The position numbers and the translations under genes are program-made. Shown here in pieces: positions 6,940-37,692 of a stretch of DNA of 64,000 nucleotides. Each line of letters opens with the position of its first letter. Positions within the stretch are counted from its first letter, which is position 1. This DNA is from an uncultured Bacilli bacterium (GTDB taxonomy: Bacteria; Bacillota_I; Bacilli_A; RFN20; CAG-826), in the NCBI GenBank assembly GCA_934168325.1, contig CAKPNG010000004.1, positions 873 to 64,872 on the forward strand, read 5' to 3'. The notes under the pieces are model-generated. The model did no database searches and was not told where the DNA came from. It worked only from the letters and a program-made list of their open reading frames with translations.

Positions 6940-7731
6940 TTAAGCTTTTTCACTATAATTACTAGGATTTAATTTAGTTCCACTATATTCCTTATAAGTA
7001 TCATAAGAATAATTAAATGTTGATTGAGAATAATTATAATTTGTATTATCCATTAAGCTATATAAAACAGTAGATTTACTTTTAATAATTTTATTATCTT
7101 TAATAGTTAAATAGTCTTCTCTTTCATATTTAACAGCAACAGTTTTACTACTATATTGTTCATATATTAAATATAATCTAACTTCTCCATCTTTTGATAA
7201 ATCGACATCATGATAATTATATTCAAATTTATATTTTATTGATTCATTTGAATCAATAAAATTCTTACATACATCATATCCACCACCAAGATAACTTCTA
7301 GAAAATCCAACACTTAGATTATCTTCACTATATTTTTCATCATAGTTAGCATATATAACATAATTATTAGGATCATCTTTACCATAATCTCTAATTAAAT
7401 AAAATTTATTATCTTTAATACCTACTTCTTCAGTACCACTTATTTTATCAGTTTCATAAGTTTGAATAAAATCAGCTTTAACAAAATTATCTTTATATCT
7501 AATTTTAGTATTATCTTCTTTTACTTTAACAGTTATTGCGCCATAATAATTTTCATCAGTTTGTGTACCTTCTTTTTTAGAGCAATCTTCACTTAAAGAT
7601 ATTAATTTATTTTTAAATTTAGTAATAAATTGATCTTCAGTTTCAACTGTTGGAGTATCTTTCTTATTACAAGAAACTAATAAATTAATAGATATTAAAG
7701 AAGTTAATAACAATAAATAATTATGTCTCAT
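6940..7731 (-). CDS. Lipoprotein, unknown function
   Basis: Signal peptide with lipobox LLVSC. I prefer the start at Met12 of the track ORF (ATG at 7731), which has GAGG 9 nt upstream and lies 4 nt after the upstream stop. Confidence 0.65.
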   Translation of the reverse strand: MRHNYLLLLTSLISINLLVSCNKKDTPTVETEDQFITKFKNKLISLSEDCSKKEGTQTDENYYGAITVKVKEDNTKIRYKDNFVKADFIQTYETDKISGTEEVGIKDNKFYLIRDYGKDDPNNYVIYANYDEKYSEDNLSVGFSRSYLGGGYDVCKNFIDSNESIKYKFEYNYHDVDLSKDGEVRLYLIYEQYSSKTVAVKYEREDYLTIKDNKIIKSKSTVLYSLMDNTNYNYSQSTFNYSYDTYKEYSGTKLNPSNYSEKA

Positions 7732-7735
7732 TTTA

Positions 7736-9574
7736 TTAAGCCTCAATTTTAAATCTATGGACATAATCAGTTAAATTAACACTTAAAGTAATTAATTCAC
7801 CATCTAAAGTAATTTCTCCTTCAGTATATCCATAGCTTGGATTATCTGAAGTTATAGCAATATTAAATTTAGTTCCACTCATATTATAAGTAAATGTAGT
7901 AGTACTTATTAAAGAATTATCTTCTCTATTATAATATTCAATAGTTCCATTAGTTTTACTACTAAATTTCATAACACCATCAAAAGCACTATATATACTC
8001 TTATATCTATAAGTACTACTTAATACCTTGTTAGCTAATTCTTCTTCAGTTAATTTAATTTTAATAGTATAAGTAACACTTACTTTAATTTCAGGATTAG
8101 TTTCACTATAAAAAGTAATCACTAAATCTTTACTTTCTTTAATATCATTAACATCTAATTGATAATTTATATATCCTTTGCCTTCTTCAACTTTTTTAAT
8201 AGTAGCTAAAGAATCATCGCTTAATTTAGCTTTTATAGCGCTATAATCAACACCATTTACATTAGGAAATACATTAACTCTTAAATTCTTATAAGTAGTT
8301 TTAGTAAATATAACTTTATTCTTTTCTCCACTAATAGCTCCACTATAAGTATCAGTAAATGTCAATTTAGTTAATTTAGGTCTAGCTACTTTAACACTGA
8401 TATTAAAACTAATTCCACTATTACTTTCTAAAACTATATTAGCATCACCAAAGTCTTTAGCATATAAGGCATCACCACTTAATTCATAACTAGTCTCATT
8501 ATCTATAGATTTAACATTCATTGTTAAATCTATTGCTTTACTAGGACTATATGTTTTAGCTTCAAATTTAATATATTTTTCTATTGGTAAAGCATCAAAT
8601 TCACAATATACTTTCTTACCATTATCATAATAATATGCACTAACTTCTTTAACTTCAGTTAAATAATAATTCATTAGATCAGGACGAGCTTCGTTTAATG
8701 TAGTTGAACTAATTCTATCTTCATAACTAACTTCATAACTATAATTAACATTAACTTCATATTTATCATTATCACTTCTAGTTTCACCAGTATAACTAGA
8801 ATAATTACTACTAATAAATCTACCTTCATTATCAAAATTAACTTCAAAAGAATAACTAATCTTAATATTTATACCTTCTTCTGTATAACTATAAGAATAA
8901 TCAGTTAATGAATAAGTAACAAAATTATTATCTTTAATAACTTTTTTAGCTTTAATATTAGCTCCACTAGCATTTAAATCGATATTATTAACTAAATTAG
9001 CATTAATAAAATTAGATGTATATAAACTAGCTTGTTTAGATAATTGACTAGGAACACTTTTTTCAAGTAAATAACTTATTCCATCTTCACTATCTTTACC
9101 ATTATTATAAACAGGTAATTGATAAGAAGAATCGACCCAAGTAGAAGATTCTATTCCATTTTTTTCATAATCAGTAATTAAAAAGAACGCTCTAAAAGTA
9201 TCAGTAGAAGATTCACTATTTTTATAAGTAGCAACAGTAGCAAATTTTAAATAATTATCACTAATAGTTTTATTTTCTTTTTTATAAGTTAAACTTCTAA
9301 ATCCATTAGATATAGTCATCTCATCATTATAAATAATTGTTTCTTCATTAATAATTTCTTTAGAAGATGTTTTATCTGTTTCTTCTTTATATTTAACTTT
9401 ATTAGAAGTACTAACTTCTATTTCATAAGCACTACTTAATTTATTAATAACTTCATCTAAAGCTACTAAAGTTTCTTTATCATCACCATTATTATTTTCA
9501 TTATTATTACAAGAAAATAATGAAATAGAAATTAAACTCATTACTGGTAAAATTATTGCTCTTTTTAAATTCAT
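7736..9574 (-). CDS. Lipoprotein with Ig-like (BIG2-type) domains and a C-terminal beta-rich domain
   Basis: RBS GAGGAGG and lipobox SLFSC. It shares its domain order with the 727-aa neighbour. Confidence 0.65.
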   Translation of the reverse strand: MNLKRAIILPVMSLISISLFSCNNNENNNGDDKETLVALDEVINKLSSAYEIEVSTSNKVKYKEETDKTSSKEIINEETIIYNDEMTISNGFRSLTYKKENKTISDNYLKFATVATYKNSESSTDTFRAFFLITDYEKNGIESSTWVDSSYQLPVYNNGKDSEDGISYLLEKSVPSQLSKQASLYTSNFINANLVNNIDLNASGANIKAKKVIKDNNFVTYSLTDYSYSYTEEGINIKISYSFEVNFDNEGRFISSNYSSYTGETRSDNDKYEVNVNYSYEVSYEDRISSTTLNEARPDLMNYYLTEVKEVSAYYYDNGKKVYCEFDALPIEKYIKFEAKTYSPSKAIDLTMNVKSIDNETSYELSGDALYAKDFGDANIVLESNSGISFNISVKVARPKLTKLTFTDTYSGAISGEKNKVIFTKTTYKNLRVNVFPNVNGVDYSAIKAKLSDDSLATIKKVEEGKGYINYQLDVNDIKESKDLVITFYSETNPEIKVSVTYTIKIKLTEEELANKVLSSTYRYKSIYSAFDGVMKFSSKTNGTIEYYNREDNSLISTTTFTYNMSGTKFNIAITSDNPSYGYTEGEITLDGELITLSVNLTDYVHRFKIEA

Positions 9575-9594
9575 AAATCCTCCTCTTATTTAGC

Positions 9595-9654: not shown

Positions 9655-11838
9655 TTAACTTGGCTTAGTTGCAGTATCAAGATTTGCAATTCTATCCATG
9701 TATTTAATAGTACAACCATTGTTATTAGAATTAAGCATGAATTTTAATGATAATGTTGTATCGCTAGTTGCTTGAACATCTGTTATCTTATAAGAATTAA
9801 CACTTAATTCATTACCTTTGTCAGGAGTAATGGTAAATGTAAAATCATCATTTATTACATATTTAAATGTAGCTTGAGGATATCTACTTGGATTTGGTTT
9901 AGTACTTTGAGTTGCTATATATGCACCAGAGCCATCTGCATTAAAGTTAATCCAACCACAATCAGTTGTCCATTTATCGCTTTGAACGAAAATTGTATGG
10001 GTAGTTAAAAAGGTTTTAAGATTTTCTAAATTTGGTTTATGGCTAAAAGTAACATCAATTATCTTATTTTTGCTTTCATCAACATTACTTGTTGCCTTTA
10101 TTGTGACAGATCCTACAGCAGTAGGCGTTACATAATAGCCATCTTCTTTCTTTTCTAGTGTAGCAAATTCTGTACCTTTAGTAATTTCTACAGTTACATC
10201 TTGAGAAGCTAAACTTGGTAAAATATTTGCATTAACTTTTTGAGCACCATCTTCAATAAAGAAATTCGTTCCGCCTTTTCCTAAAGTTAAAGTCATTTCA
10301 TTAATAACTGGGGCTTCAGCAGTTACTTTAACTTCCTTCATATCTCCTTTACCATTGTCGAACAATAAAGTAAGATCGCCTAATTTATTTACTGTAAATG
10401 TTTTGTCTTTTTCATTATAAACTAATCCATCTTTTTCGACTGATCCTACAAGTTGTGGTTCAACTAGTGGTGATCCTTTAACATTACTTAAATAAGGATA
10501 TAAAGTCGAATTTCCGACAACAACATTATCTTCACCAACATCATATTTTTTATATTCTTTATATTTTATATATTGTAAATTTACATCATACTCTGTTGCA
10601 AATAATCCATCAAAATCTAAATCACATTCACCTTGATTTTTATCAGCTGCACGATTATAGGTTAATTCAAAATTATATTCAGTATAGCCAAACTCAGCAT
10701 CATCTTTTATAACTTTATTTGCTTTATCCAAGCCACTCTTATAGTAATCATTTTTAAACGATAATGAATGTAAGAAGTTATCTCCATCAATGCTGAATTT
10801 CAATGTATAAAGATGACAAGAAGTATTGTAATCACTTGTGCTAGTAATACCACTCATTTCAACAGTATATGTTTTACCATCTTCAGCTAACGTAGGCTCA
10901 CCTACTTTAACTGTTTCAGGAATCATGGTAGAAGAATAAAAAACTCTATCATTATTTTCGCCAAATGCTGTATTAACAATAGTCTCTAAGTATCCAGCAG
11001 ATTGTGTATAAGAAATTGCTTCTTCTTCAGACATTGAGCCAATGCCATTATAAACCTCGCCCTCTTTCAAAATTTTATTGGTAGTTACTGTAGTACTAGT
11101 TGTAGGCCCTGAAGAAGGTGAATTATCACCAAATCTATTTGTACGTTGATTATAATTAAACGTATAAGCATCACCCGGTACAAAGCCTCTCGTAGTAGTT
11201 TCTCTACTAAATCCATTAGCACCATCTGCACTTGTCCGACTATCTAAAGTTACAAAATTATTATAAACTTTAGCCTCGTTAACTTGATGAGTTTTAGCTG
11301 AACCAGTATCAGTATCATAAGTTAAAGTAGCGCTCTTTAATTTTTCTACTTCAACTTCAGTAGCCATACGAAGTTGCATTGCTGCCCAATCTAATTTTTC
11401 AGCTAATTCACCATCTTTATTAAATTCAAGAGCTTCTAAGTCAACCGGAGTAACTACATCTTCTGGCTCAACATATGGAGCATCTTTTTCAGCTACTTTA
11501 ATAGCAACATTACTTTCTGGCATCGTAAAAGTAAAATGGGTATCAGTTTGGACTGGCATTATTTCTTTTAAACCATCATAATAAACTTTTACATAATCTA
11601 GAACAAAATCTGCACTATCGCTTACAACATCAAAAGTAACAGAAAATCCTGCTTCTACTTTGTCAGTAACATTTAAGTTTTGCACTTTCAAATGAGTTGC
11701 ATTTAATGTTTCGACTGCATATTTTGCTGGCTCTGGTTCTGGTGCTGGTGGGCAAACTTCATTACCACAACTAGTTAAGCCACCAAAAGTCATAAAGGAC
11801 GTTGCTAATAACGTTAAAAATAAATTTCTTTTTCTCAT
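9655..11838 (-). CDS. Lipoprotein with a BIG2-like domain, paralogous in architecture to 7736-9574
   Basis: Lipobox GLTSC followed by PAPEPEPA linker. It is visibly richer in G+C and in A/G/V/T residues than its neighbours. Confidence 0.65.
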   Translation of the reverse strand: MRKRNLFLTLLATSFMTFGGLTSCGNEVCPPAPEPEPAKYAVETLNATHLKVQNLNVTDKVEAGFSVTFDVVSDSADFVLDYVKVYYDGLKEIMPVQTDTHFTFTMPESNVAIKVAEKDAPYVEPEDVVTPVDLEALEFNKDGELAEKLDWAAMQLRMATEVEVEKLKSATLTYDTDTGSAKTHQVNEAKVYNNFVTLDSRTSADGANGFSRETTTRGFVPGDAYTFNYNQRTNRFGDNSPSSGPTTSTTVTTNKILKEGEVYNGIGSMSEEEAISYTQSAGYLETIVNTAFGENNDRVFYSSTMIPETVKVGEPTLAEDGKTYTVEMSGITSTSDYNTSCHLYTLKFSIDGDNFLHSLSFKNDYYKSGLDKANKVIKDDAEFGYTEYNFELTYNRAADKNQGECDLDFDGLFATEYDVNLQYIKYKEYKKYDVGEDNVVVGNSTLYPYLSNVKGSPLVEPQLVGSVEKDGLVYNEKDKTFTVNKLGDLTLLFDNGKGDMKEVKVTAEAPVINEMTLTLGKGGTNFFIEDGAQKVNANILPSLASQDVTVEITKGTEFATLEKKEDGYYVTPTAVGSVTIKATSNVDESKNKIIDVTFSHKPNLENLKTFLTTHTIFVQSDKWTTDCGWINFNADGSGAYIATQSTKPNPSRYPQATFKYVINDDFTFTITPDKGNELSVNSYKITDVQATSDTTLSLKFMLNSNNNGCTIKYMDRIANLDTATKPS

Positions 11839-12032: not shown

Positions 12033-13991
12033 TTAAGCAATACTAACAGTTAAAATACAATAATATCCGTAATAATCAACCAAATTTAAATTAACATTTA
12101 TATTATTGAATTTATAATTATTTTCATCTATTTTTGTATAATTTGCTTTAATTAAATCATTTATATAATTATTTATATTTTCTTTAACAATAGTTTCAGT
12201 TGCATCTTCATCAAATTTAATAAATATTGATAAAGATTTTTCATCTATACTACTTGGATCTAAAGAAATATCTAAAGTATTCTTAAAGAAAGGTAAATTA
12301 TAATCTTTTCCTAATAAATTAATTAAAGCTTTATCAATTTCTTCATCATAATCTTTCCAACTATTAAAATCAGTAAAAACATATTGAGTATTTTTTACTT
12401 CATAAAATAATGAATATTTTTTACTCATCTCTTCATAAACTATTGATAAATTTACTTTATAATGATTAGATTCATTTATATATGTATATATTTTATTTTC
12501 ATTATCTAAAAAAGTTAATTTATATCCTTTATTAATAAATAAATTTCTATAATCATTTAATATATTATTAACTACATCAATATCGCTAATTAAATCAGTA
12601 AAAATTGTAATTAATCCAGTCTTTATATTTAACGTATAATCATAAGTTATTCCATCTAAATAAGGTAAAAAATTAACGTCAATCAATACTTTATTAAATT
12701 CATCTTTATAACAATTATTATATTCATAAAACCCTTCTAAAGGTGTATATTTTGTTGCGTTTTCAGTATCAACATTCATTATTGTATTATTTAAATCTTT
12801 AAATATATATGTCAATTCACCATTTAATAATCCTAATAAAGAATATTCTAAATGAAGTTCTAAATTATTATCTTTATTAAATAATAAATATACACTTCCA
12901 TCAATAGCATTTTGTCCTTTATAATCACTTATTACTTCTTTAGTAAAATCATTACTTATTCCATAAGGTAAATAATATTTATTATCTATTTTAGTAAATA
13001 TTGCACAAGAAAAATTAAATTTAGGTTCATCTATTTTAATTCCTTTATAAAATCTTTTCACTTCTTTAACATTATTCGATGAATCTATATCATAATATGA
13101 CATTGTATTATCGTTATTATATTTATAAAAAGATTTTATAATTATTTCATTATTATCATCATCAAAATCAATCTCTTCACTATAATAACTATCTTTATTA
13201 TATTTATATAATGATTTTAATATAATTTCCCCATTATACATTGAATCTATTACTTCTACTGTATAATTATTATTAGTCTTTATATTATTAAAAAAGTCTT
13301 CTAATTCTGGATATTTATTATCTAATTTAGTAATTACTCTGACATTATTTTTATTAATATCACTAACTTTTAAATAATATTCACTCATTACTTTAACACT
13401 ATTTATTTCATATTCATTAGATACAATTTGAATTGTATCTAATGTATTATCTTTAAAATTAAATATTATCTTATTAACATCTAAATCATCATAAGTAATA
13501 TGATATACTAAATCATTTTTATATTTACCAACATATTCATAACTATTATTACCATCTTTTTTAAAATCTAATTTATTATTAATATAAGTAATAAAAGGAC
13601 TTACTAAAAAAGAATCTTTATATAAAACTAATTCATCATTATAGTCATAAACTAATTTATGATCTACTTCATTATTAATAGTTAAATAATCTTCATTAAC
13701 ATGTCCATTATCATCTTTAGAATAAAAATATTCATAATTAACAAAATTATCTTTATTATCATAAGATTTATAATACGCTTTATCTAATCCAATACTAGTA
13801 ATACATTGATATTCAATTACTTCATTAGATTCTAATAATGTAATTGTATTATATCCAGTATATGTAATAGAAGTAATCTTCTCTTCAAGTAATTTATCGA
13901 TTGGATCAATATTATTTGCTTCTTCTTTACATGAACTTAATACACTAGATAAGCTAATAATAAGTGAATATAAAATAAATTTAGTCTTCAT
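12033..13991 (-). CDS. Lipoprotein, N/K/Y-rich, with C-terminal alpha/beta repeat modules
   Basis: Lipobox VLSSC. C-terminal modules such as YRNLFINKGYKLTF... and YINDLIKANYTKID... resemble the repeats in 31059-33305. Confidence 0.6.
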   Translation of the reverse strand: MKTKFILYSLIISLSSVLSSCKEEANNIDPIDKLLEEKITSITYTGYNTITLLESNEVIEYQCITSIGLDKAYYKSYDNKDNFVNYEYFYSKDDNGHVNEDYLTINNEVDHKLVYDYNDELVLYKDSFLVSPFITYINNKLDFKKDGNNSYEYVGKYKNDLVYHITYDDLDVNKIIFNFKDNTLDTIQIVSNEYEINSVKVMSEYYLKVSDINKNNVRVITKLDNKYPELEDFFNNIKTNNNYTVEVIDSMYNGEIILKSLYKYNKDSYYSEEIDFDDDNNEIIIKSFYKYNNDNTMSYYDIDSSNNVKEVKRFYKGIKIDEPKFNFSCAIFTKIDNKYYLPYGISNDFTKEVISDYKGQNAIDGSVYLLFNKDNNLELHLEYSLLGLLNGELTYIFKDLNNTIMNVDTENATKYTPLEGFYEYNNCYKDEFNKVLIDVNFLPYLDGITYDYTLNIKTGLITIFTDLISDIDVVNNILNDYRNLFINKGYKLTFLDNENKIYTYINESNHYKVNLSIVYEEMSKKYSLFYEVKNTQYVFTDFNSWKDYDEEIDKALINLLGKDYNLPFFKNTLDISLDPSSIDEKSLSIFIKFDEDATETIVKENINNYINDLIKANYTKIDENNYKFNNINVNLNLVDYYGYYCILTVSIA

Positions 13992-14057: not shown

Positions 14058-14078
14058 AAAGTAGTTATTCACTACTTT
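14058..14078 (-). terminator. Terminator of the opp operon
   Basis: On the minus strand, AAAGTAGT-GAATA-ACTACTTT forms a perfect 8-bp stem followed by TTTCTTTATTTT. It overlaps the stop codon at 14077. Confidence 0.55.
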
Positions 14079-14937
14079 ATTCTTTAATTTTAATTGTTTT
14101 ATCAATATTACCATCAACTTCAATTGCTTGATTTAATAACAATTTACAATGCATATCATATGTATTTTCAGATTCTTTTGATTCATATGTTCCATCATAA
14201 ACTAAATTAGTAATTACATTTTTATCATTAAATGAACAAGTAACATTACAATCAAAGATAATTTGTTGATAAGTAAATTGAACAGTTCCTTTTAAAGATA
14301 TTTCATCTTTTTTACTAATAAAATAAGTTTTATCTTTAATATTATTAATAAAATCAGTAGTTGCTCGATTATTATTAACACTATTATTAATCATATTAGA
14401 TAAACCATTTTGATAAGAAGAAATAGATTGCTCATTATTAATAGTTTGAGTTTTAAACTCTTCATTTTTATAAGTATTAGTAATTAAAGTTTTATCTTCT
14501 TTATTAAGATAATTTTCTTCAAAAGTACCACTAATTTCTTCGCCTGGATTATTAGTAGATTTATCACTTATTTGACTAATATTTTCTTGATAGCTATAAA
14601 AATCATCTTTATTAGAATCACCTAAGAATCCAAGATAAGTAATTTGAGTAAAATCAAACTTAATATCTTTACCTTCTTCATTTTTTGTATTAGATAAAAT
14701 AGATAATTTAATGCCTTGTTTGAAAAATAACCTTGCAGAACTAAGCTCTTTTTCTTTATTTTCATTAAAAGCCTTATTAAATTCTTCTTCAGTAATATCT
14801 TTCTTTTTCTCTATTTTATTAACTAAATAATCTTTGAAATTAGAACGAGCTAAAATTTTATTAGTTTCTTTTTTATCACAAGAAACTAATGTAAAAATGA
14901 AAAAAAGAGTTAATATTAATGTTAGCTTTTTATTCAT
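14077..14937 (-). CDS. Lipoprotein co-transcribed with and coupled to oppF
   Basis: Lipobox TLVSC. Its ATG lies 2 nt after the oppF stop. Confidence 0.65.
   Translation of the reverse strand: MNKKLTLILTLFFIFTLVSCDKKETNKILARSNFKDYLVNKIEKKKDITEEEFNKAFNENKEKELSSARLFFKQGIKLSILSNTKNEEGKDIKFDFTQITYLGFLGDSNKDDFYSYQENISQISDKSTNNPGEEISGTFEENYLNKEDKTLITNTYKNEEFKTQTINNEQSISSYQNGLSNMINNSVNNNRATTDFINNIKDKTYFISKKDEISLKGTVQFTYQQIIFDCNVTCSFNDKNVITNLVYDGTYESKESENTYDMHCKLLLNQAIEVDGNIDKTIKIKE
14711..14746 (-). repeat. Copy G of the dispersed motif family (inside a coding region)
   Basis: The minus strand reads GCTTAGTTCTGCAAGGTTATTTTTCAAACAAGGCAT. It shares an exact 17-mer with copy B. Confidence 0.7.
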
Positions 14938-14939: not shown

Positions 14940-16643
14940 TTATTTATTTCCTTTATCTAATTCAATAATTTCTTTTTTATATTTATTAACTTCTTCGGTA
15001 TTAGCTAAAATGAAATGTCCTGGAACAATTTCAACTAATTTAGGTTTTTCAACACTATAATCATGTTCTTTACTTGGATCATAAATTATACGTTTTCTAT
15101 TTTTTTCCGAAATTGGATTTGGTTTAGGAATTGCACTTAATAAGCTCTTAGTATATGGATGAAGTGGATGTTTAAATAATTCATCACTACTAGCAAGTTC
15201 AACAATTTCACCAAAATACATAACAGCAATACGGTCGCAGAAATATTTAACAACACTTAAATCGTGAGCGATAAACATAATTGTTAAGCCCATTTCTTCT
15301 TTTAAATCATTAAGTAGATTAATAATTTGAGCTCTAATTGAAACATCTAAAGCACTAATTGGTTCATCGCAAATCAATAAACGTGGATTCATAATTAAAG
15401 CACGAGCAATACCAATTCTTTGACGTTGACCACCACTAAATTCATGTGGATAACGGTTAGCGTAATCAGCAATTAAACCAACTTTTTCTAATACTTCGAC
15501 AACTTTCTTATGGTTTTCTTCTCTATTACGATGTCCTTGAATTTTTAAACCTTCTTGAATAATATCTTCAACAGTCATTCTAGGATCTAAAGAGTCGATT
15601 GGATCTTGGAAAATCATTTGAATTTCACTCATAACTTTCTTGTTATCTTTCTTTAATGGCTCTAAGATTTTATTGATTTCTAGAATCTTTTTATCTCTAG
15701 TTTCAACTAGTTCTGCCATTTTTTGATTATGAGTTTCTTCATCTAAATTTGATTTATCTAATTCTAAAGAATTCTTCTTAAATTCTTCATTAATATCTTT
15801 TAATTTAGATTTTAAAATCTTAATTTTATCACCATTATTAGTTAATTTAGGAGCATTCTTTTGATCGTATTTAATTTGCTTAATTTTAGCTTTTTGAACA
15901 CGAACAATTTCATTACGTTTTGCTTCTTCTTTTTCTAAATTAAGCATTAAAACACTTTCTTTAGCTAAATAAGCATTTTCTAAATTAGTTTTATATTCAT
16001 CTAATTGATGTTTAACTTCTTCCTCAGTTATTTTACCTTCTCCTAAAGAAGTTTTTAATTCTTTAGCTTTAAGAGTATAAGCATCTTTATTAGCTTTTCT
16101 AAGTGTAGCAAGTTCTTTTTTAATACTCTTTTTATATTCATTAAATCTAATATTAGTAAATTTAATTTCTTTTTCATTCCATCTACTACCAGCGCTAATT
16201 CTATAGCCATTATAATAAACAGAACCACTAGTTATATCATAAAGTCTAATAATACTACGACCAGTTGTTGTTTTACCACATCCTGATTCACCAACAACAC
16301 CAAAACATTCTCCTTCTTTTATTTGGAAAGAAATGTCGTGGACTGCTTTAATCTTATATTTTTTAGGTCCTTTCCCAAAGAAAAAGAATTGTTTAAGGTG
16401 ATTTACACTTAATAAAACATGATTTTGTACTAATTCTTCTTTATAAGTACATTTACTAGTAATATTTTTAATTTGTTCTTCTAAAGGAAGTTCACTTAAA
16501 GGGTTAATTTCACTATCACTAGGTGGTACATGTTCACTATATTCATTAGAAGAATCAATTCTATTTTCATCTAAAACATCTGCTGTTTCTTGAATAGCTT
16601 TGCCTTCATCGGTGTTAGATATAGGATTTTTATTCTCCTTCAT
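14940..16643 (-). CDS. oppF: Oligopeptide ABC transporter ATPase OppF with an N-terminal acidic extension and a ~185-aa K/E-rich insertion
   Basis: Walker A GESGCGKTTTG, Q-loop IQMIFQDP, signature FSGGQRQR, Walker B LLICDEP and the C-terminal oligopeptide-ATPase tail HPYT. Confidence 0.85.
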   Translation of the reverse strand: MKENKNPISNTDEGKAIQETADVLDENRIDSSNEYSEHVPPSDSEINPLSELPLEEQIKNITSKCTYKEELVQNHVLLSVNHLKQFFFFGKGPKKYKIKAVHDISFQIKEGECFGVVGESGCGKTTTGRSIIRLYDITSGSVYYNGYRISAGSRWNEKEIKFTNIRFNEYKKSIKKELATLRKANKDAYTLKAKELKTSLGEGKITEEEVKHQLDEYKTNLENAYLAKESVLMLNLEKEEAKRNEIVRVQKAKIKQIKYDQKNAPKLTNNGDKIKILKSKLKDINEEFKKNSLELDKSNLDEETHNQKMAELVETRDKKILEINKILEPLKKDNKKVMSEIQMIFQDPIDSLDPRMTVEDIIQEGLKIQGHRNREENHKKVVEVLEKVGLIADYANRYPHEFSGGQRQRIGIARALIMNPRLLICDEPISALDVSIRAQIINLLNDLKEEMGLTIMFIAHDLSVVKYFCDRIAVMYFGEIVELASSDELFKHPLHPYTKSLLSAIPKPNPISEKNRKRIIYDPSKEHDYSVEKPKLVEIVPGHFILANTEEVNKYKKEIIELDKGNK

Positions 16644-25206: not shown

Positions 25207-25228
25207 TTTTTTAATTTTTAATAACAAT

Positions 25229-25250: not shown

Positions 25251-25273
25251 AATTATAACTTAATTTAAACTAA

Positions 25274-29399: not shown

Positions 29400-30863
29400 T
29401 TATTTAGCAGTTGAATGTAAATAATTATATACTGGTCCAAATTCTACACCAAAGTGAGAATAGACAATTTCGTCATTTGGAAGAACATAGCCTTCGCCAA
29501 CAACATAATTTATAAAAACTTTATCATCACTAAGATCTTCTTCAGTTCCATTTTTGTTATAGTCATAAATTACACCAGTTTCAACAAATCCTGCTAAAAG
29601 CAAAAGACTATCAACTGAATCTAAAGCAGTACCAAGGCCAAAGCAATTTCCGTAATCTATTGCAGCATATCCTTTATTGCCTTTATTATCGTATTCACCA
29701 TAACTTCCGCCTAAGAAACTATAATTTGTAAAAGCAGAACCTGATTGTAAATATGCTAAGCCAAATTTAATTGCTTGATGTTGTAAATATTGTTGAACTT
29801 CAATACCAGCTTGTTTTAATTGAGCAGCAGTTGCTAAAATTCCTGATTGTAATTCATAATTAGTTTTTTGAGTAGCATAAACTTGATATAAATCACCTGT
29901 ACTATTTACAGCATAGAAAATATATTGATCTGTAGCAGTTGTTTCACCTTTAATTACATATCCCCAATATTCATTTGAATAATAAACATCAGCTTTTTGT
30001 CCGCCAGTTAATTCAACATCTCTAACAGAATAGGTGTTGTTATTAACCATTTCAGTGAATTTTTTAAAATCATCGTGAGCTTCTAATTTAGTGCCCTTAA
30101 CAACTTCAAGGAATTTAGCATTACTAAAATCTAAATTTGGTAAATATTCATTTGATTCAGGTAAGAATGTTGTGGCAAGTGATCCACTAATTGTATATGT
30201 GCTTAATTTCCCACCTAAGCTAATTTCTAAAGATAATAATCCGTTACTAGCTTTAAATGTCATATCAGTAATATAACTTGTAAATGAACCAAGTCTTAAC
30301 ATACCTGATAAATATATCATTTCATAATATGCAGTTTCATTAGTGAAGTCGCCATCAGCATTAACAGATAAATCTAACGAATATTCTTTAACATCAAAAG
30401 TACCTTCAGTTTTTAAATTTTGAGCAGTTTTTCCTTCAACAAATGTATTAAAGAAATCACTAAAAGTAATAGCAAATTCTTCATAACTTGTTGCAACTGT
30501 TTTATCTACATATCCTGCACTGAAAATGCTTCCTTTTTCTTCAAAGAAACTTCCAACACCAACGCCTTCTAAATTTACTAAACCACCAGTAACGGTATTA
30601 GCTTGTCTAGCGCCTGTAGTTACTGTATAAAGACAAGCATCTTTACTAAATTCAACAGCTGAACTATAAGTAATTTCTCCTGATAAAGAATAAGTTCCAG
30701 CAGTTTCAATTCTAAGTTCACTAGCTTCAGCTAAAGTTTTCATTGCACTATGAACAGTAGTTGTATCTTCTTTTGGCTTTTCTGGTTCTTTCCCTTGTTT
30801 ACAGCTTGTAACACCAAGAACGAGTGCACTTAAACTTAATGCATATAATAATGTTTTTTTCAT
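29400..30863 (-). CDS. Lipoprotein, unknown function
   Basis: Lipobox GVTSC. Its composition is A/G/T/V-rich, like 9655-11838 and 60847-62400. Confidence 0.65.
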   Translation of the reverse strand: MKKTLLYALSLSALVLGVTSCKQGKEPEKPKEDTTTVHSAMKTLAEASELRIETAGTYSLSGEITYSSAVEFSKDACLYTVTTGARQANTVTGGLVNLEGVGVGSFFEEKGSIFSAGYVDKTVATSYEEFAITFSDFFNTFVEGKTAQNLKTEGTFDVKEYSLDLSVNADGDFTNETAYYEMIYLSGMLRLGSFTSYITDMTFKASNGLLSLEISLGGKLSTYTISGSLATTFLPESNEYLPNLDFSNAKFLEVVKGTKLEAHDDFKKFTEMVNNNTYSVRDVELTGGQKADVYYSNEYWGYVIKGETTATDQYIFYAVNSTGDLYQVYATQKTNYELQSGILATAAQLKQAGIEVQQYLQHQAIKFGLAYLQSGSAFTNYSFLGGSYGEYDNKGNKGYAAIDYGNCFGLGTALDSVDSLLLLAGFVETGVIYDYNKNGTEEDLSDDKVFINYVVGEGYVLPNDEIVYSHFGVEFGPVYNYLHSTAK

Positions 30864-31058: not shown

Positions 31059-33305
31059 CTAGATTTTTCTTTCTCTATATATACCAATATAGTTATGAGC
31101 AAAGCTATTTAAGAAATAAAGTATTAATCCAGACTCATTTTTATAGAATGTTTGAGTTATAACTCCATCACTATTATAGTTATAATCATAAACTGGCCAA
31201 TCAGTATTATTTTCAAATGCTTTTAAGATATTAGCATTAGCTAAAGCAGCATTATTCATAGCGGTATTTCCATTTGATGCATGATATATAATATGAATTA
31301 ATACACGATCACTACTACCATCATAATATTCGCTAACTTCAAAATCTTTTTCATCTTGAATACCAGTTATAGTTGGAAGAGTTACTTCTTCTTGGAAACG
31401 ATAATTAAGTAATTCTTGAACTTTTGAATATTCAGTTAGTCCTGAATAAGTCTTTTTATAACTAATAACCATAACTAGATAAGAAATACCATATGTTTTA
31501 TTAGTTGAATATAAGAATTGAATTGTAAATCTACCATCTTTTGAAGTAGCTTTATAAACTCCAGAAGTACTATTTAATGTAACAGTCCATCCAGCTTGTT
31601 CTAATTTTTCTTTATATTCGCTAGATATATCGTTGCTCATTTCAATTTGTAATTGATAACTTGTTTCAGTAATAGATATTTTACCAGTACTAGCATCTTG
31701 AGTTTTATATTTTCCAAAATAATAACTTGATCCATTAGTAATTTCAGGAATAGTTGGGATTTCTCCTCTAGTATTTTGATTTAAAAATGCATTTATATCA
31801 TCTTTTGGGAATGAGGTAGCAAATTGAGCTAAACCAACACTACAAGCAATTACACCTCTATTTACATTTTTATATATTGGATAATTTTGTAAGAATGTAG
31901 TTTTAGAAAAATAAGTTAAGATAATGAATGTTGTATCATTAGGATTAATTAAATAAGCATTTCCATTACCTACTGATTTAGATTTCCATCCTTTTCTAAC
32001 TAATTCTAAGAAATATGTTTCTAAATCATCATTACTTAAATTAATCATAAAATAATTTAGACCAATTCCATTACGACTATTCATGTTATAGCCAGCTCGA
32101 TAGAAAATTGTATCATAAATTCTATTTTCTAATCTAGGAACGCTTTCAAGTAATCCACCAAAATATGTTTCAGATAAATCGACTGAACTATATTGATAAG
32201 AAATATCAGTATTAAGTAATGAATAAAGTAAAACTTGAATATTTTTATTTTTAGCAACATATTGCATTTGAATTCTAAATGTACCTAAAGGATCCATAGC
32301 TCCTTTACCATCACTATTTGAGAAATTAAATGTTGTTAAACCTAATTTTTTCTCTAAGAAATTTGCTAGATAGTTGACACCATTTGATGTATCATCTTCA
32401 CCTACTTTTTTAGTAGTATCTGGTTTATAATATATGACACTTGCTGGTAATCCATTATTAGTTAAATAGGTTCTAGCACTCATAATATTCTTGCCAGAAT
32501 CTTTTAAAACCCCGTCAAACGAAGATATTTTTGTTAAATTTACATAACGACCTTCACTAGCAAATATATGTACTGGAAGTTTATCTTTTTCTTTATATTC
32601 TTTATCATCTAGATAACTTACTTTGACATAAAATTCTTCGTTATTTTCTGCATCAACACCGAAATTTAAATTGAATTCGTAATTAGGATTTATTGCTTCA
32701 TAATATTCATTCTTTTTAACTTCGTTAACTTTATAGCCAGCTTTTGCTAGTTTTTCTTTATAAACAATAATATTAGAATAATCTAGATTTTCACCATAAA
32801 TATAAAATGATCCATCACTACTTATTTTATGTGTATAAACTGTACTATAGAAGAAAGGAACACAATCTGTAACATAATAATTACCTAAATAACTTCTAAG
32901 TCCAGCGACTTTTCCCATCTCTTCTTCATCACCAGTACTTGCACTATTATCTAATATAACTTGATTAACCCAATCGCCTGTTTGTTCAGTTAAAATCCAT
33001 CCTGCATAAACGTCAATTGAAGCATTAACAATACTATTTTTATAGAAAACATTTTCTTTAGTTAAATTAGTTGCACTACTTATATCTTTATACCAATTAA
33101 CAAAAGTATATTCACCATTAACTCTACTAGGAGTAAATAATTCAGTGATCTTACTACCTTTTTTATAAGACTCTACTTTAGTTGTATGTAATTCATCTTG
33201 AAGGTGATAAGTAATAGTAATATCTTTATTTTCATCATTACAGCTTACTAATGAAAAACTGCTTATAATTAATGATAACCCTGCTAAAATAAATTTATTT
33301 TTCAT
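31059..33305 (-). CDS. Lipoprotein with an N-terminal Listeria-Bacteroides (Flg_new-type) repeat and about five internal alpha/beta modules
   Basis: Lipobox SLVSC. GEYTFVNWYKD...IDVYAGW is typical of Flg_new. The repeated modules are KEKLAKAGYKV..., ELVRKGWKSK... and KEKLEQAGWTV.... Confidence 0.65.
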   Translation of the reverse strand: MKNKFILAGLSLIISSFSLVSCNDENKDITITYHLQDELHTTKVESYKKGSKITELFTPSRVNGEYTFVNWYKDISSATNLTKENVFYKNSIVNASIDVYAGWILTEQTGDWVNQVILDNSASTGDEEEMGKVAGLRSYLGNYYVTDCVPFFYSTVYTHKISSDGSFYIYGENLDYSNIIVYKEKLAKAGYKVNEVKKNEYYEAINPNYEFNLNFGVDAENNEEFYVKVSYLDDKEYKEKDKLPVHIFASEGRYVNLTKISSFDGVLKDSGKNIMSARTYLTNNGLPASVIYYKPDTTKKVGEDDTSNGVNYLANFLEKKLGLTTFNFSNSDGKGAMDPLGTFRIQMQYVAKNKNIQVLLYSLLNTDISYQYSSVDLSETYFGGLLESVPRLENRIYDTIFYRAGYNMNSRNGIGLNYFMINLSNDDLETYFLELVRKGWKSKSVGNGNAYLINPNDTTFIILTYFSKTTFLQNYPIYKNVNRGVIACSVGLAQFATSFPKDDINAFLNQNTRGEIPTIPEITNGSSYYFGKYKTQDASTGKISITETSYQLQIEMSNDISSEYKEKLEQAGWTVTLNSTSGVYKATSKDGRFTIQFLYSTNKTYGISYLVMVISYKKTYSGLTEYSKVQELLNYRFQEEVTLPTITGIQDEKDFEVSEYYDGSSDRVLIHIIYHASNGNTAMNNAALANANILKAFENNTDWPVYDYNYNSDGVITQTFYKNESGLILYFLNSFAHNYIGIYRERKI

Positions 33306-33317
33306 ATTTCAATCCCC

Positions 33318-34988
33318 TTATTTAGCTAAATAAGCCTCAACACTTGCATAACTTGTAGTTCCAAAATTATCAAGAGTATGGTCTAAATAAATAAGACCTA
33401 AATAATTAAATAAATACCAAATATCTATTTTAGTAATATTATTAGCATCATCTTTAGTTATTTTAAAAGCACCACCATAACTTGCGTCTTCAAGTCCAAA
33501 TCCATAATAATTAGCAAATTGTTCTGTAAAAGCTAGATCTCTAGTAATATAAGCATCATTAGGTTCACTATAAATCATAGTGTCAATGTAATTTAATACT
33601 TTTAATGACTTAGGATATCTTAAAAAGTCAACTACACCACCAACGTATTCACTAAAATCACCTACTTTTTCACTAATTACTACTTGATCTTTATCATCTA
33701 AAGTAAATTTATAAATACCATTATATTCACCTTTATTTCTTAAGTTAATATAACCTTCAGTTTTCAAAGTATCATCTTCTTTTAATCCATCACTAGTAGG
33801 AATTGATAAATAATATTCATTAGTATAATATTCATTAGTTTTAGTAATTAATACATTTTTACCATTTTCATCAGTAACTACATTACCTTCATCATCATGC
33901 TTATTAGTAACTCTAACACCATGGAAATTATTATTTAATAGTAATTCTTTAGCTTTACTTAATTCAGTAGGTACTTCATAAGCACTTCCACCTTTATTAA
34001 CATAATCTTTAATCTCAGTTAAGCTAACATTATCAAAATTATCAATAGTTCCATATAAATAGCCTAATAATTGTTCATAACAATCTAATGTATAATTAAT
34101 AGATGATATCGAATTATTTTCATAATTAATAGTTAAATAAATACAACTAATATAAGGAGCAATCTTTTCAATAAATCTACTAGCTACAGCAAAAGCTTTT
34201 TTAATTTCTAAATCAGTAATCATATATTGATGTTCACCAATTTTCATATTCTTTTGATAAGTTTCTAAATTAGGAATACCACTAAAAGAAGGTATTTGAT
34301 TATAAATAGTATTACTATAATCACCCTTATTATTAGTACAGAATTCATATGGAGTAATAGTTTTATCACTATTCTTATAATATTTAAATACTTTATTATT
34401 CTTATCTAAAGCATATCCATATGAATCATTATCATCATCAAGATGAGCTTCATAATAATATTCACCATCAAAATATCTATCTAATTTAAAACTTGATCCA
34501 GTAATAGTTGATTCTTGCAAAGCATGATAATTAGTTTTACTTTTAATTAAATCAATAGCAGATTTAAGTTCAACTGAATTCTTCTCATCAAGTACAATAC
34601 CTGTATTACATAAAATAGGACAATAAGCTACTTTATTACCATCCTCAGTTGTAATTTTAGCAACTGTTTTACCTATTTTATTAGCTCTAATAACGTTATT
34701 ATCAAGTAAAGTAGCTACACTTTCATCAATAATTTCAATCTTAACTTTTTGATTAGTAGCATTACTTGGTAATATCTTATATCTAAGCTGAGCCTGTCCT
34801 AAATAAGCTAAAGTAATTGAATCATCTAAGAAATAGACAGCTTCTACTTTAACTTCTTTAGGAGTAACAGGACCAGGTTCTTCTATATCAGGATCAATAA
34901 TAGGAGGTAATGAATTAGAACTATTACAAGAAGCTAATGATAAAGTTAATAAACTTAATAATAATATATTCTTTTTCATAATCTTCAT
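33318..34988 (-). CDS. Lipoprotein with an N-terminal BIG2 domain
   Basis: Lipobox SLASC. BIG2-like segment VEAVYFLDDSITL...ILPSNATNQKV...KIGKTVAKITTEDG. Confidence 0.65.
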   Translation of the reverse strand: MKIMKKNILLLSLLTLSLASCNSSNSLPPIIDPDIEEPGPVTPKEVKVEAVYFLDDSITLAYLGQAQLRYKILPSNATNQKVKIEIIDESVATLLDNNVIRANKIGKTVAKITTEDGNKVAYCPILCNTGIVLDEKNSVELKSAIDLIKSKTNYHALQESTITGSSFKLDRYFDGEYYYEAHLDDDNDSYGYALDKNNKVFKYYKNSDKTITPYEFCTNNKGDYSNTIYNQIPSFSGIPNLETYQKNMKIGEHQYMITDLEIKKAFAVASRFIEKIAPYISCIYLTINYENNSISSINYTLDCYEQLLGYLYGTIDNFDNVSLTEIKDYVNKGGSAYEVPTELSKAKELLLNNNFHGVRVTNKHDDEGNVVTDENGKNVLITKTNEYYTNEYYLSIPTSDGLKEDDTLKTEGYINLRNKGEYNGIYKFTLDDKDQVVISEKVGDFSEYVGGVVDFLRYPKSLKVLNYIDTMIYSEPNDAYITRDLAFTEQFANYYGFGLEDASYGGAFKITKDDANNITKIDIWYLFNYLGLIYLDHTLDNFGTTSYASVEAYLAK

Positions 34989-34998
34989 TTCCCCCTAA

Positions 34999-37692
34999 TT
35001 AAAATGTTTTTTGTTCATAATTGAAATACATGAAATCATTAGTAGGATTTTCAGTACTATATTTTTGGAAAATAAGTTTTAAAGTAGCATCACTTACCTT
35101 AATTAAAAGTCCACCATTATAATCATCATATGATCCAGTATAATAAATCTTTCTAACAGTAGATCCTTTAAATGAATCACTACTAACTGATAAATAAGTT
35201 CTACTTAAAACAGGATTAGTAACGAATTTATTAAATAAGACTTCTTTTAAAGCAGTAGTATCTTTAAATGCTCTACTAGAAATAGTATATAATTCTTCAT
35301 TAAATGAAACTTTATTTAAATATGCATTTCCTAAGAAAGCTTGTGAATAAATAGTTAAAGTTTTTTCAGGAACATTATAGATAGAATCTGTTTTATTAGT
35401 AGGATAAGCAGCTAAATAACTATAAGTAGGATCTTTAGTAGCAATTTCAAATAAAACACCATCAATTGCTTTATATTTAGTATTTTCACTACCTACAGTA
35501 ATAGATGCTAATCTCTTACAACCATTGAAAGTGAAATCAGCTTCTTTTGATGAACTACTATTAACTTTAAATGATGTAACACTACTAGGAATATTAAGAG
35601 TTTCTAATGATTCATCATTAATAAAGCATCCATAATCAACAGTTTTAAGACCTTCAGGTAATGTAATTTCTTTAAGACTCTTAAATCCAGATAAAGATTT
35701 AGAAGCTAAAGATGTTAATTTTGAAGGTAAAGTTAATGAAGTAACTGCACTATTATTATTAATCATATAAGATCCAATAGAAGTTAATCCATCAGGAAGT
35801 TTCAAAGTCTTTAATTGATCATTAGAGCTAACCGAATAATTTCCTAATTTTGTAATAGAATCTGGAAGAACTGCTTCAGTAATACCAGTATTATTAAAAG
35901 CATAATCTCCAATACTAGTAATTCCATCATAGAAAGTAAAACCAGTAAATTTTTCACAATTTCTAAATGTACTAGCTGGAATATCTAAAATTGTATTTGG
36001 CCATTTGACAGTTGTTAATTCTTTACAACCTTCAAATGCACCCTCACCGACAGTAGTAACAGCATGAATATCAACACTTTCAAGATGAGTTCCACTAAAT
36101 GCACCATCTTCAATAGTAGTTACAGAACTTAGAGCAGTATATGTTTTATCTGCTTTCATTGGAGGATAACATAATACTTTAGATTTATCTTTATTATAAA
36201 GAATACCATCACTAGTTGAGAAAGCTTCATTTTCTTCACTAATAACGATTTCTTTTAAAGCAGCATTGCCTTTAATTGCATTTGGATCTAATCCTTCATC
36301 ATCATCTTTTGTTCTAGTACCTTTATCATCATAAGCTTTTAACGCTTTTGGTAAAATAATCTTTGTTAAATTTGGATTACTACTTATAGCCATATTACCA
36401 ATATATGTAACAGTATTAGGAACTTTAAATTCAGTTAAATAAGGTAAACTTTGGAAACAAGCACCTTGAATTCTTTCGAGTGCTTCAGGTAAAACAAACG
36501 ATTTTAAATTATTACAACTTGGAAACATTCTTTCAATAATTTTAATATTTTTAGGAAGTTTAACAGATTCTAATGCACTACATTTAACAAATAATGACAT
36601 TATTTTGTCATCAACTTTACCTTTAGTATTAATACAACCTTTAATTGAATCAGGTAAAGTAACTTTAACTAAACTTGTACAACTGTTATATAAGTTCATA
36701 CCTATATATTCAATACCTTCAGGTAAAGAACCATCTTCTAAGGATTTACAGTTATAGAAACAGTTATAACCGATATCTTTTAAAGTTGATGGATAATGTA
36801 ATGTATATAAAGATGTACAACTATAAAATGCAGTATTACCAATAGCAGTTACGCCTTCACTAATTTTAATTCTTTCAAGAGTTTGACTATTTTTGAAACA
36901 GTTATTACCAATCTTGGTAACTTTATATGTTTCATTATTAGTAGGATTAACTACTTCAGTAGGTGTAATAACAGCAGTACTTGTTCCTTTATATGTAGAT
37001 AATGTAGCTTCTTTAGTTGCATCATCAAAAGTTACAGCAAAATCACCTTGTTCAGCAACTGTTAAAGTTGGCATAACGTGAATTTTAATTTCATCACTTA
37101 AAGTTCCACAAGTTGCAGTAATGAAAACGAAACCATCACTTTCAGCAGTAACATTACCTTCTAAATCGATAGTTACATAACGATCATCATAGCCTTCAAT
37201 CTTTTTAATACCCCATGTAACTTCTTTATCAGTAGCATTTTCAGGTAAAACAGTAGCAGTTAATTTAAATGTATCGCCAACTTCAACTTCTAAGTTTTCT
37301 CCTTCATTAATAGTAATGCTTTCTACTTCAATTGGAGCAACATTAACAACAATAGTATCTTCAAGTCCATCGACTGTAGCTTTTAAAGTAAGTGTTCCAA
37401 CTCCTGAAGCTGTAAATTCGCCTTGTTCACTTATAGCACCGATTGTAGCAGGATCAGTAACTCCATCATCTACGAAAGAAAAAGCTACTTTTGAAGTAGT
37501 ATCGGCTGGTTCTACTTCGACTTCAAATTTGTGTGTGTCTCCTACTTTAAGAGTAAGACTATCGCCATCTTTGAAACTGATTGACGTTGCTTTGACTTCT
37601 TTTTGACAACTAGTCAAAGTATAAAAAGTTGTGGTAGATATCCCTAATCCAAGGATTAAAGAGGATAATCTTAAAATATTGATTTTTTTCAT
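34999..37692 (-). CDS. Lipoprotein with two BIG2 domains and a long BspA-type leucine-rich repeat (LRR_5) region
   Basis: Lipobox TLTSC and two BIG2 segments (EPADTTSKV..., LPENATDKEVTW...). There are many repeats of the form IGN.CF.N...L..I.I...VT.IG..AF..C..L. Confidence 0.75.
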   Translation of the reverse strand: MKKINILRLSSLILGLGISTTTFYTLTSCQKEVKATSISFKDGDSLTLKVGDTHKFEVEVEPADTTSKVAFSFVDDGVTDPATIGAISEQGEFTASGVGTLTLKATVDGLEDTIVVNVAPIEVESITINEGENLEVEVGDTFKLTATVLPENATDKEVTWGIKKIEGYDDRYVTIDLEGNVTAESDGFVFITATCGTLSDEIKIHVMPTLTVAEQGDFAVTFDDATKEATLSTYKGTSTAVITPTEVVNPTNNETYKVTKIGNNCFKNSQTLERIKISEGVTAIGNTAFYSCTSLYTLHYPSTLKDIGYNCFYNCKSLEDGSLPEGIEYIGMNLYNSCTSLVKVTLPDSIKGCINTKGKVDDKIMSLFVKCSALESVKLPKNIKIIERMFPSCNNLKSFVLPEALERIQGACFQSLPYLTEFKVPNTVTYIGNMAISSNPNLTKIILPKALKAYDDKGTRTKDDDEGLDPNAIKGNAALKEIVISEENEAFSTSDGILYNKDKSKVLCYPPMKADKTYTALSSVTTIEDGAFSGTHLESVDIHAVTTVGEGAFEGCKELTTVKWPNTILDIPASTFRNCEKFTGFTFYDGITSIGDYAFNNTGITEAVLPDSITKLGNYSVSSNDQLKTLKLPDGLTSIGSYMINNNSAVTSLTLPSKLTSLASKSLSGFKSLKEITLPEGLKTVDYGCFINDESLETLNIPSSVTSFKVNSSSSKEADFTFNGCKRLASITVGSENTKYKAIDGVLFEIATKDPTYSYLAAYPTNKTDSIYNVPEKTLTIYSQAFLGNAYLNKVSFNEELYTISSRAFKDTTALKEVLFNKFVTNPVLSRTYLSVSSDSFKGSTVRKIYYTGSYDDYNGGLLIKVSDATLKLIFQKYSTENPTNDFMYFNYEQKTF

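Follow-up and report, generated by a model that had tools for sequence, protein, structure and literature searches.

The 64,000-nucleotide stretch analysed here (the window; contig CAKPNG010000004.1 of an uncultured Bacilli bacterium, ~25% GC) carries between positions 6940 and 37692 a block of 16 open reading frames (ORFs), every one of them on the minus strand. Ten of these encode lipoproteins with a lipobox; the others specify an S8/PA subtilase of 1351 aa, a membrane protein with a DUF3899 domain and the oligopeptide transporter proteins OppBCDF. A lipobox (L/V-x-S/A/G-C) follows a basic, hydrophobic N-terminus in the ORFs starting at 6940, 7736, 9655, 12033, 14077, 21797, 29400, 31059, 33318 and 34999, and such ORFs are over-represented here, accounting for 10 of the 16 in the block and for 3 of 29 in the rest of the window (p = 4e-4, Fisher test); eight of these lipoproteins are denoted below by lp and their length in amino acids. 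An earlier reading of this DNA, made from the sequence alone (the sequence-only reading), had proposed the same gene content, which the ORF list and the lipobox reading bear out, as Pfam does for the Big_2 (21797, 33318 and 34999), LRR_5 (34999) and Flg_new (31059) domains. It had also singled out the common orientation of the genes. All 16 are indeed on the minus strand, but the minus-strand run spans 6250-46661, taking in parB, parA, rsmG, mnmG and suf, and GC skew is negative throughout the window, so that co-orientation is a regional or leading-strand property and does not define the block.

The subtilase (25274..29329; Peptidase_S8 E 3e-41, PA E 2e-12) is of the cell-envelope proteinase (CEP) type. 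It begins with a Sec signal peptide that lacks a lipobox and continues through a pro-region and the catalytic domain, where the PA domain (residues 494-569) is inserted inside the S8 envelope (residues 162-677), to a stalk rich in beta structure and a transmembrane (TM) tail at the C-terminus. An alignment of 12 sequences (A1) shows the catalytic triad D171/H280/S649 and the oxyanion residue N384 to be invariant. The nearest solved structures are those of C5a peptidase, SpyCEP and CspA (E ~1e-31, residues 269-910). No fn3_5 domain was matched in the window protein at E <= 0.01; the orthologue with 81% identity does contain it, as do many further orthologues. Against the NCBIfam LPXTG serine peptidase subfamily the protein scores 154 bits, far under the cutoff of 1400. 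In one relative (locus L014) the S8 gene is present as a tandem triplication (1252, 1226 and 1217 aa) upstream of Opp.

Downstream of the protease gene lie the genes for a small DUF3899 membrane protein of 139 aa with about three TM helices (24820..25239; DUF3899 E 1e-12) and for a 955-aa, ~105-kDa lipoprotein with an N-terminal Big_2 domain (21797..24664; lipobox ATSC, Big_2 E 3e-6). The latter appears, judging from its sequence relatives, to be a highly divergent family-5 (OppA-type) binding protein carrying Big_2, because SBP_bac_5 is matched by 12 of its 21 orthologues (best E 1.3e-17), the profile of the 21 aligned orthologues (A2) matches the OppA structure 8are in the PDB (E 1.6e-4) and its gene keeps a constant position between S8/DUF3899 and oppB. 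The OppA label of the sequence-only reading is thus retained through the orthologues, their profile and the position by oppB, its own sequence giving no such match. The transporter itself includes two BPD_transp_1 permeases, one of them carrying OppC_N, and two ATPases, in both of which Walker A, signature and Walker B motifs are intact and followed by an oligo_HPY C-terminal region. OppB (344 aa, 20641..21675; BPD_transp_1 E 1e-40) is 52-70% identical in distant loci. OppC (672 aa, 18620..20638; OppC_N + BPD_transp_1) contains an extracytoplasmic insert of ~360 aa (residues 98-455) between TM1 and the permease core, which is clade-wide (gap fraction 0.08) and 26% identical, as against 70% for the core. 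OppD (665 aa, 16630..18627; ABC_tran + oligo_HPY) harbours a Lys/Glu-rich insert of ~300 aa (residues 134-434) in the nucleotide-binding domain at canonical position 118, residues 18-133 and 435-631 aligning to residues 4-118 and 118-316 of mycobacterial OppD (PDB 8j5q chain D); this insert, too, is clade-wide, with 23% identity compared to 80-86% for the core. The presence and length of both inserts are conserved and their sequences divergent, in line with the description of an 'expanded' Opp in the sequence-only reading. OppF (567 aa, 14940..16643; ABC_tran + oligo_HPY) has an N-terminal extension and an internal insert, with Walker A at residue 118 and the signature at residue 402.

The closest sequences to the window are two metagenome contigs (loci L002 and L085), whose S8 proteins are 97% and ~99% identical to that of the window, and a sister species is represented by the contigs L001 and L083 (S8 81% identical). 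Contigs ERZ28576733 scaffold_595 and SRR28284438_2116 belong to the species of the window, and ERZ808256 NODE_76 and ERZ808291 NODE_7 to the sister species. In the sister species (L001 and L083 combined) all 16 genes and both flanks occur in identical order; the scattering in close relatives that would have refuted the sequence-only reading is not seen. Sequence conservation divides the block into two sets. The identities of core proteins in the sister species are 94% for OppB, 83% for OppA, 81% for S8, OppC and OppF and 80% for OppD; the accessory lipoproteins reach 72% (lp556), 69% (lp748), 64% (the 897-aa leucine-rich-repeat (LRR) lipoprotein, which is 90-94% identical between strains), 62% (lp612), 58% (lp652 and lp274), 53% (lp487), 51% (lp727) and 36% (lp286). 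The comparison of locus content between strains that the sequence-only reading had called for, made here with the sister species as well, distinguishes core from fast-evolving members (80-94% against 36-72%) and reveals lp487 as strain-variable.

Beyond the genus, S8 has the OppA-like gene and two or more of the oppBCDF genes beside it in 20 of 33 distant Bacilli-type loci from gut and rumen genomes, in which S8 identity is 26-36%; the remaining 13 are mostly contigs ending at S8. Neither a reversed orientation of opp with respect to S8 (L005, L008) nor a move of the DUF3899 gene to the upstream side of S8 breaks the linkage, and a small multi-TM ORF adjoins S8, either up- or downstream, in 18 of 32 Bacilli-type loci. 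The order S8, lipoprotein, SBP_bac_5 lipoprotein, OppB is found in L028, and an Opp gene lies within the fetched flank in 31 of 47 Clostridia-type loci. The widely conserved core consists of seven genes, namely, those for S8, DUF3899, the OppA-like lipoprotein and OppBCDF, and adjacency kept over large distances and through rearrangements suggests that S8 and Opp are functionally coupled. Beside the cluster, some relatives carry a gene for an M13/PepO-like lipobox metallopeptidase of ~900-960 aa (L011 5921-8812, L012 5974-8799, L018 3036-5927 and L021 6206-8836), which is absent from the window.

Among the accessory genes, that of the 897-aa lipoprotein at 34999..37692 (lipobox LTSC), combining Big_2 (E 6e-15) with BspA-type LRR_5 repeats (E 7e-87), is the only one with homologues beyond the genus. 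In 35 of the 47 Clostridia-type loci, the Big_2 + LRR_5 module is fused C-terminally to S8/PA/fn3_5 in single proteins of 2400-3000 aa (loci L036-L082; for instance, L065 7026-14315, ~2400 aa), mostly with SBP_bac_5 and Opp genes as neighbours. This fusion constitutes a Rosetta-stone link joining BspA-type LRR proteins and CEPs, and because the two form one polypeptide in the Clostridia relatives, the LRR lipoprotein of the window can be expected to work with the protease. As read from the domain sequences, it is probably the target-binding or adhesion arm of the protease.

The C-terminus of the protease (window 25274-25420) is composed of GCGGS, a 20-residue hydrophobic helix and the basic end RKKKKTK. 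An LPXTG-like motif is absent from it, as from all 32 complete Bacilli-type S8 orthologues (0/32); a C-terminal TM helix terminates 24 of these 32, and the strict motif GC[GNS][GSA] is present in 13. Across S8 orthologues 26-36% identical, the same tripartite tail recurs, with G-C-[GN]-G-[SNAE], a hydrophobic helix of ~20 aa and a Lys/Arg-rich end, the Cys being invariant; it was seen in the window protein and in loci L001, L005, L008, L011, L013, L018-L021, L025, L027 and L035. None of the curated NCBIfam CTERM sorting models fits this tail, and the LPXTG_anchor model scores below its cutoff. The protease is predicted to be held without sortase, by its C-terminal TM tail, and the tripartite pattern resembles, in its sequence, a sorting or lipid-anchor signal. 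A bolder proposal, which we find doubtful, is that the GCGG-type tail is an undescribed sorting or lipid-anchoring signal that replaces LPXTG/sortase in wall-reduced gut Firmicutes, with the DUF3899 protein perhaps handling the signal; if this were true, S8, the OppA-like lipoprotein and the OppC ectodomain could form a physically coupled cut-and-capture complex.

Several features divide the block transcriptionally. A terminator-like hairpin with a 10-bp stem (25228..25251) lies immediately 3' of the S8 stop codon, a terminator- or attenuator-like hairpin with a 16-bp stem (21736..21770) is located between the OppA-like gene and oppB, both on the minus strand, and additional hairpins occupy the gaps after lp487, lp286 (where a T-run follows) and lp727. 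Several of the genes are set apart by intergenic stretches of 70-195 nt that contain strong Shine-Dalgarno sites, and the only tightly packed junctions are LRR-lp556-lp748, oppBCDF-lp286 and lp612-lp274. In view of the internal hairpins, the wide gaps and the few tight junctions, the block probably comprises about seven transcription units and is not one operon. A promoter scan returned fewer sites than shuffled sequence and is uninformative at 25% GC. As to phase variation, no homopolymer or dinucleotide tracts, meaningful tandem repeats or invertible elements were found.

Our interpretation builds on the genes and domains observed, on catalytic residues that are intact, on synteny that is conserved, on the gene fusion and on the contrasts in evolutionary rate; from these observations we infer substrates, peptide binding, co-regulation and physiological role. 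On balance, we lean towards the view that the core is a nutritional module consisting of a cell-envelope protease and Opp, with non-sortase anchoring, and that the block is not one 31-kb machine. The S8/PA subtilase would be secreted through Sec, held at the membrane by its C-terminal TM tail and cut extracellular proteins to oligopeptides; the ~105-kDa OppA-type lipoprotein, with its Ig-like domain, would capture the peptides, and OppBCDF would import them, thereby furnishing amino acids to a gut bacterium with a reduced genome, while the LRR lipoprotein would serve as a partner of the protease that binds its targets. The analogy with the CEP and Opp of lactic acid bacteria, as drawn in the sequence-only reading, consequently stands for the seven-gene core, linked in 20 of 33 loci, and not for the whole 31-kb block as one system. 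Similarly, its view of the lipoproteins as accessories of the system is supported for the LRR lipoprotein, whose module is fused to S8 in 35 of 47 loci, and finds no support for the other eight, which were traced only within the genus and in a region where hairpins separate the genes.

A number of results weigh against a nutritional module. C5a peptidase, SpyCEP and CspA, the structural neighbours of the protease, target host immune factors and do not serve nutrition. A maturase of the PrtM/PrsA type is missing from the block, no rotamase or PrsA domain being detected by Pfam or NCBIfam in any of its 16 proteins. In single-sequence searches, the 955-aa protein alone yielded no SBP_bac_5, NCBIfam or PDB match beyond Big_2. 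Hairpin terminators follow lp487, S8 and the OppA-like gene, which makes co-transcription of protease and transporter unlikely. Two of the distant loci, L013 and L024, have ample flanks and no adjacent complete opp operon and are genuine exceptions to the linkage, and the genomes behind the synteny counts are not phylogenetically independent.

In the literature, we found no description of a linked S8-Opp cluster. The cluster extends the known proteolytic paradigm of lactic acid bacteria to another clade and another form of anchoring, and it defines no new system. Gut and rumen Bacilli of the RF39/RFN20 type are abundant and their physiology is almost uncharted; a linked surface protease and importer predicts that they obtain amino acids by degrading, outside the cell, protein from the diet, mucus or microbes. 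In addition, the locus exemplifies a sortase-independent surface hold of a cell-envelope proteinase.

The remaining eight lipoproteins present a different picture. Upstream of the protease, lp556 (33318..34988; lipobox LASC) has an N-terminal Big_2 domain (E 2e-5) followed by ~430 aa without an assigned fold, and its homologues occur, among the fetched loci, only in L001, L002 and L085; in the 97%-identical strain L002 two ORFs (275 + 279/282 aa, 4365-6021) stand in place of one intact orthologue, which reflects either a pseudogene with a frameshift or a fault in the assembly. Its neighbour lp748 (31059..33305; lipobox LVSC) starts with a Flg_new (Listeria-Bacteroides) repeat (E 4e-6), followed by ~650 aa without an assigned fold, and has only two full-length homologues, with 69% and 43% identity, among 1.84 billion representative proteins. 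The lipobox protein lp487 (29400..30863), encoded directly upstream of the protease, has eight cluster matches, all within the genus. Its alleles are 100, 91, 87, 86, 82 and 69% identical where neighbouring genes are 94-99% identical (P0124-P0131; L002 8474-9931; L085 10001-11464), so that lp487 is hypervariable between strains of apparently one species; it could serve as a strain marker or signal immune or phage pressure. On the far side of the opp genes, lp286 (14077..14937; lipobox LVSC, no Pfam match) begins 2 bp downstream of oppF and is, for this reason, probably co-transcribed with oppBCDF. It is followed by lp652 (12033..13991), a lipobox protein rich in Asn, Tyr, Ile and Asp, for which a search of 5.8 billion protein clusters returned no more than three representatives, lp652 being one of them, and by lp727 (9655..11838), a lipobox protein whose residues 529-599 weakly match an Ig-like domain (GldM_3rd/Big_2). 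The genes of these two contrast sharply in composition despite being adjacent, with 18.0% GC for 12033-13991 and 31.9% for 9655-11838. The block ends with lp612 (7736..9574; lipobox-like LFSC, no Pfam or NCBIfam match) and lp274 (6940..7764; lipobox LVSC, no Pfam match), the latter of ~263-274 aa, its true start being likely the internal Met at MRHNY.

Database-wide searches with lp652, lp487 and lp748 retrieved homologues only within the genus; the remaining accessory lipoproteins had matches only in the sister-species and same-species contigs among the fetched loci, and none of the eight had a match in the more distant S8-Opp loci, where other, unrelated lipoprotein families occupy the equivalent positions. 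The eight are best regarded as fast-evolving, lineage-specific surface proteins whose genes lie on both sides of the core and whose tie to proteolysis is this co-location. The sequence-only reading had united the proteins at 12033, 29400, 33318 and 60847 in a paralogous family sharing a beta-rich N-terminal region, and sequence comparisons did not confirm such a family. BLASTP among the lipoproteins gave signal-peptide matches only, iterated phmmer/hmmsearch runs never cross-detected the four proteins and HHalign probabilities were below 2% for 150 lipoprotein pairs, Big_2 excepted. Something of the shared N-terminus may nevertheless survive for two of them. The AlphaFold2 model of lp487 (pLDDT 56 overall, ~70-80 for residues 31-260) has weak Foldseek matches to nitrobindin, RseB, LolB, LprG and LolA (E 4e-4 to 1e-2), and that of lp652 (pLDDT 41) has LolA as its top matches (8v1k, E 3.5e-5; 2w7q). 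In both models, the first ~200 aa form one helix, a six-strand meander, helices and a three-strand meander, and at least these two lipoproteins may, as far as such low-confidence models indicate, begin with a ligand-binding domain of the LolA type. By contrast, the stretch rich in beta structure at the start of 33318 is Big_2, a different fold.

These contrasts bear on what the locus does as a whole. The block could be an island for host interaction and immune evasion. The protease would then work in the manner of C5a peptidase, SpyCEP or an immunoglobulin protease, the lipoproteins with LRR and Ig-like domains would serve adhesion or as decoys, the variable ones would be antigens under immune selection and Opp would be a neighbour for other or secondary reasons. 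Immune-evasion CEPs are the closest solved structures to S8, BspA-type LRR and Big_2 domains are typical of adhesins, lp487 is hypervariable among strains, the accessory lipoproteins outpace the core in divergence and the habitat is gut or rumen, where the choloylglycine-hydrolase (CBAH) gene at 54824-55798 also fits. Against this, the adjacency of Opp to S8 has been kept over very large distances and through rearrangements, which suggests functional coupling, and some relatives have recruited an M13 peptidase to the cluster; phase-variation tracts, invertible elements and MIB/MIP-type domains were not found. We consider such an island rather unlikely as the main explanation, although evasion and nutrition are not mutually exclusive and a role in host interaction may coexist with the nutritional one.

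A larger role for the lipoproteins was envisaged in the integrated 31-kb system of the sequence-only reading, with ten lipoproteins as paralogous substrate binders co-regulated with the protease and Opp and adapted to a wall-less envelope. The synteny of 16/16 genes in the sister species, the enrichment of lipoproteins in the block, the unrelated lipoproteins that relatives also carry beside S8 and Opp, the LolA-like domain that two lipoproteins may share and the C-terminal TM anchor found in place of LPXTG in the window S8 and 24 of 32 Bacilli-type orthologues are all compatible with this proposal. Yet the lipoproteins show no sequence relationship and eight of them are untraceable past the genus, several terminators and separate promoter-like elements split the block, and LolA-like folds normally bind lipids, not proteins. 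The S8-Opp linkage, moreover, extends to Clostridia-type genomes, and the related orders are mixed in wall status (PMC10868615). Taken together, these points render an integrated system improbable. Still less credible, to the extent that we would be surprised to see it borne out, is a signalling function, whereby Opp would import signal peptides and S8 would mature secreted pro-peptides, as in the Phr/pheromone systems of Firmicutes. Opp systems of Bacillus and Enterococcus do take part in signalling and the protease-importer linkage would suit it, but the ORF lists and Pfam scans of the block contain no small pro-peptide genes or RNPP-type regulators, a 1351-aa CEP with a PA domain and a stalk would be an atypical pheromone maturase, and amino-acid supply is the simpler need of a reduced genome.

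The nutritional module has its clearest counterpart in Lactococcus, in which PrtP and Opp constitute the established route of casein utilisation (PMC7783315). Both Lactococcus lactis PrtP/Opp and the block combine a large surface S8 protease, which has a PA domain inserted in it and a stalk of beta-rich domains, with an Opp importer, to which a lipoprotein OppA, in the block a putative one, is added, and by analogy they would have in common the logic of cutting outside and importing oligopeptides. The differences are substantial. The S8 protein of the block lacks LPXTG/sortase anchoring, ending instead in GCGGS, a TM helix and a basic tail, and no PrtM/PrsA maturase lipoprotein accompanies it. 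Unlike in the lactococcal system, protease and opp genes lie side by side on the chromosome, an arrangement shared by several genera. The OppA-like protein is of ~105 kDa, bears Big_2 and is barely recognisable, OppC, OppD and OppF carry large inserts, and a DUF3899 partner is present. An opp-pepO arrangement is known in lactococci, and the M13/PepO-type peptidase in the clusters of some relatives recalls it.

The streptococcal CEPs ScpA/ScpB and SpyCEP, together with CspA, have an S8 + PA + Fn3-like architecture; the window protease shares S8 and PA with them and, to judge from fn3_5 in its orthologues, may share the Fn3-like part. Streptococcal CEPs are wall-anchored through LPXTG and act as virulence factors with narrow host substrates; we know of no case in which they are linked to opp. 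The BspA-type LRR proteins resemble the 897-aa lipoprotein in that LRR_5 repeats dominate and are accompanied by Big_2; here, the module is a separate lipoprotein beside CEP and Opp, whereas in the Clostridia relatives the protease itself contains it as its C-terminal half. When modelled, the first ~200 aa of lp487 and of lp652 retrieve the LolA/LolB/LprG/RseB fold class, tentatively so since the two proteins are 2-3 times larger than LolA/LprG, TM-scores are 0.3-0.44, sequence similarity is absent and model confidence is low.

Two mycoplasmal systems invite comparison as well. The P100 OppA of Mycoplasma hominis is a ~100-kDa surface lipoprotein with a Walker A/B ATP-binding loop that acts as an ecto-ATPase and cytoadhesin (PMC2323007; references in PMC11720521). 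P100 and the OppA-like protein are alike in being lipoproteins of ~100 kDa that are encoded with oppBCDF and too divergent for standard family models; P100 is the substrate-binding component, and the OppA-like protein is a putative one. In contrast to P100, the 955-aa protein contains no Walker A motif ([AG]xxxxGK[ST]), because of which an ecto-ATPase activity would have no basis in it, and the organism does not belong to the Mycoplasmatales. The MIB-MIP system of Mycoplasma pairs immunoglobulin binding with a protease (PMC11720521) and, like the block, encodes a surface binder together with a surface serine protease in a reduced-genome, host-associated bacterium, although the protease of the block is from a different family. 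Membership of the locus in MIB-MIP was rejected, Pfam and NCBIfam scans of its proteins having revealed no MIB/MIP-type domain.

Of the 45 window ORFs, 5 terminate at TGA, which indicates that the standard bacterial code applies, and an origin from Mycoplasmatales was rejected on the same ground. Among 185,579 GTDB species representatives the top S8 match has an identity of only 36%. The matching records come from rumen, chicken gut and human gut and bear names such as 'Bacilli bacterium', 'Erysipelotrichaceae bacterium', Ca. Onthovivens, Ca. Enterosoma and CAG:568, which we take to point to uncultured reduced-genome Bacilli of the RF39/RFN20 type. Predictions for the orders RF39, RFN20 and ML615J-28 are mixed, including both walled and peptidoglycan-deficient members (PMC10868615, PMC7301438). 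Within the 64-kb window there are no genes for peptidoglycan synthesis or sortase, and the window alone bears neither way on wall status.

Several genes outside the block complete the picture of the window. A divergent pair of U32-family peptidase genes, at 1824-3038 (minus strand) and 3119-5392 (plus strand), lies just beyond the block and is syntenic in the sister species. These 'collagenase-family' genes (1824-5392) were considered and rejected as part of a surface system, as their products have no signal peptides and are, on that account, probably cytoplasmic. Three further lipobox proteins of ~520-650 aa are encoded at 46808-48748, 48684-50633 (plus strand) and 60847-62400 (plus strand), with neither a Pfam domain nor similarity to other lipoproteins. 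The CBAH gene of the bile-salt-hydrolase family (54824-55798, minus strand; E 7e-95), whose product has the N-terminal Cys, is consistent with a gut habitat. Next to it, a pair of genes for a GT4 glycosyltransferase and an LPG_synthase_TM protein (52175-54711, minus strand) is suggestive of membrane glycolipid synthesis.

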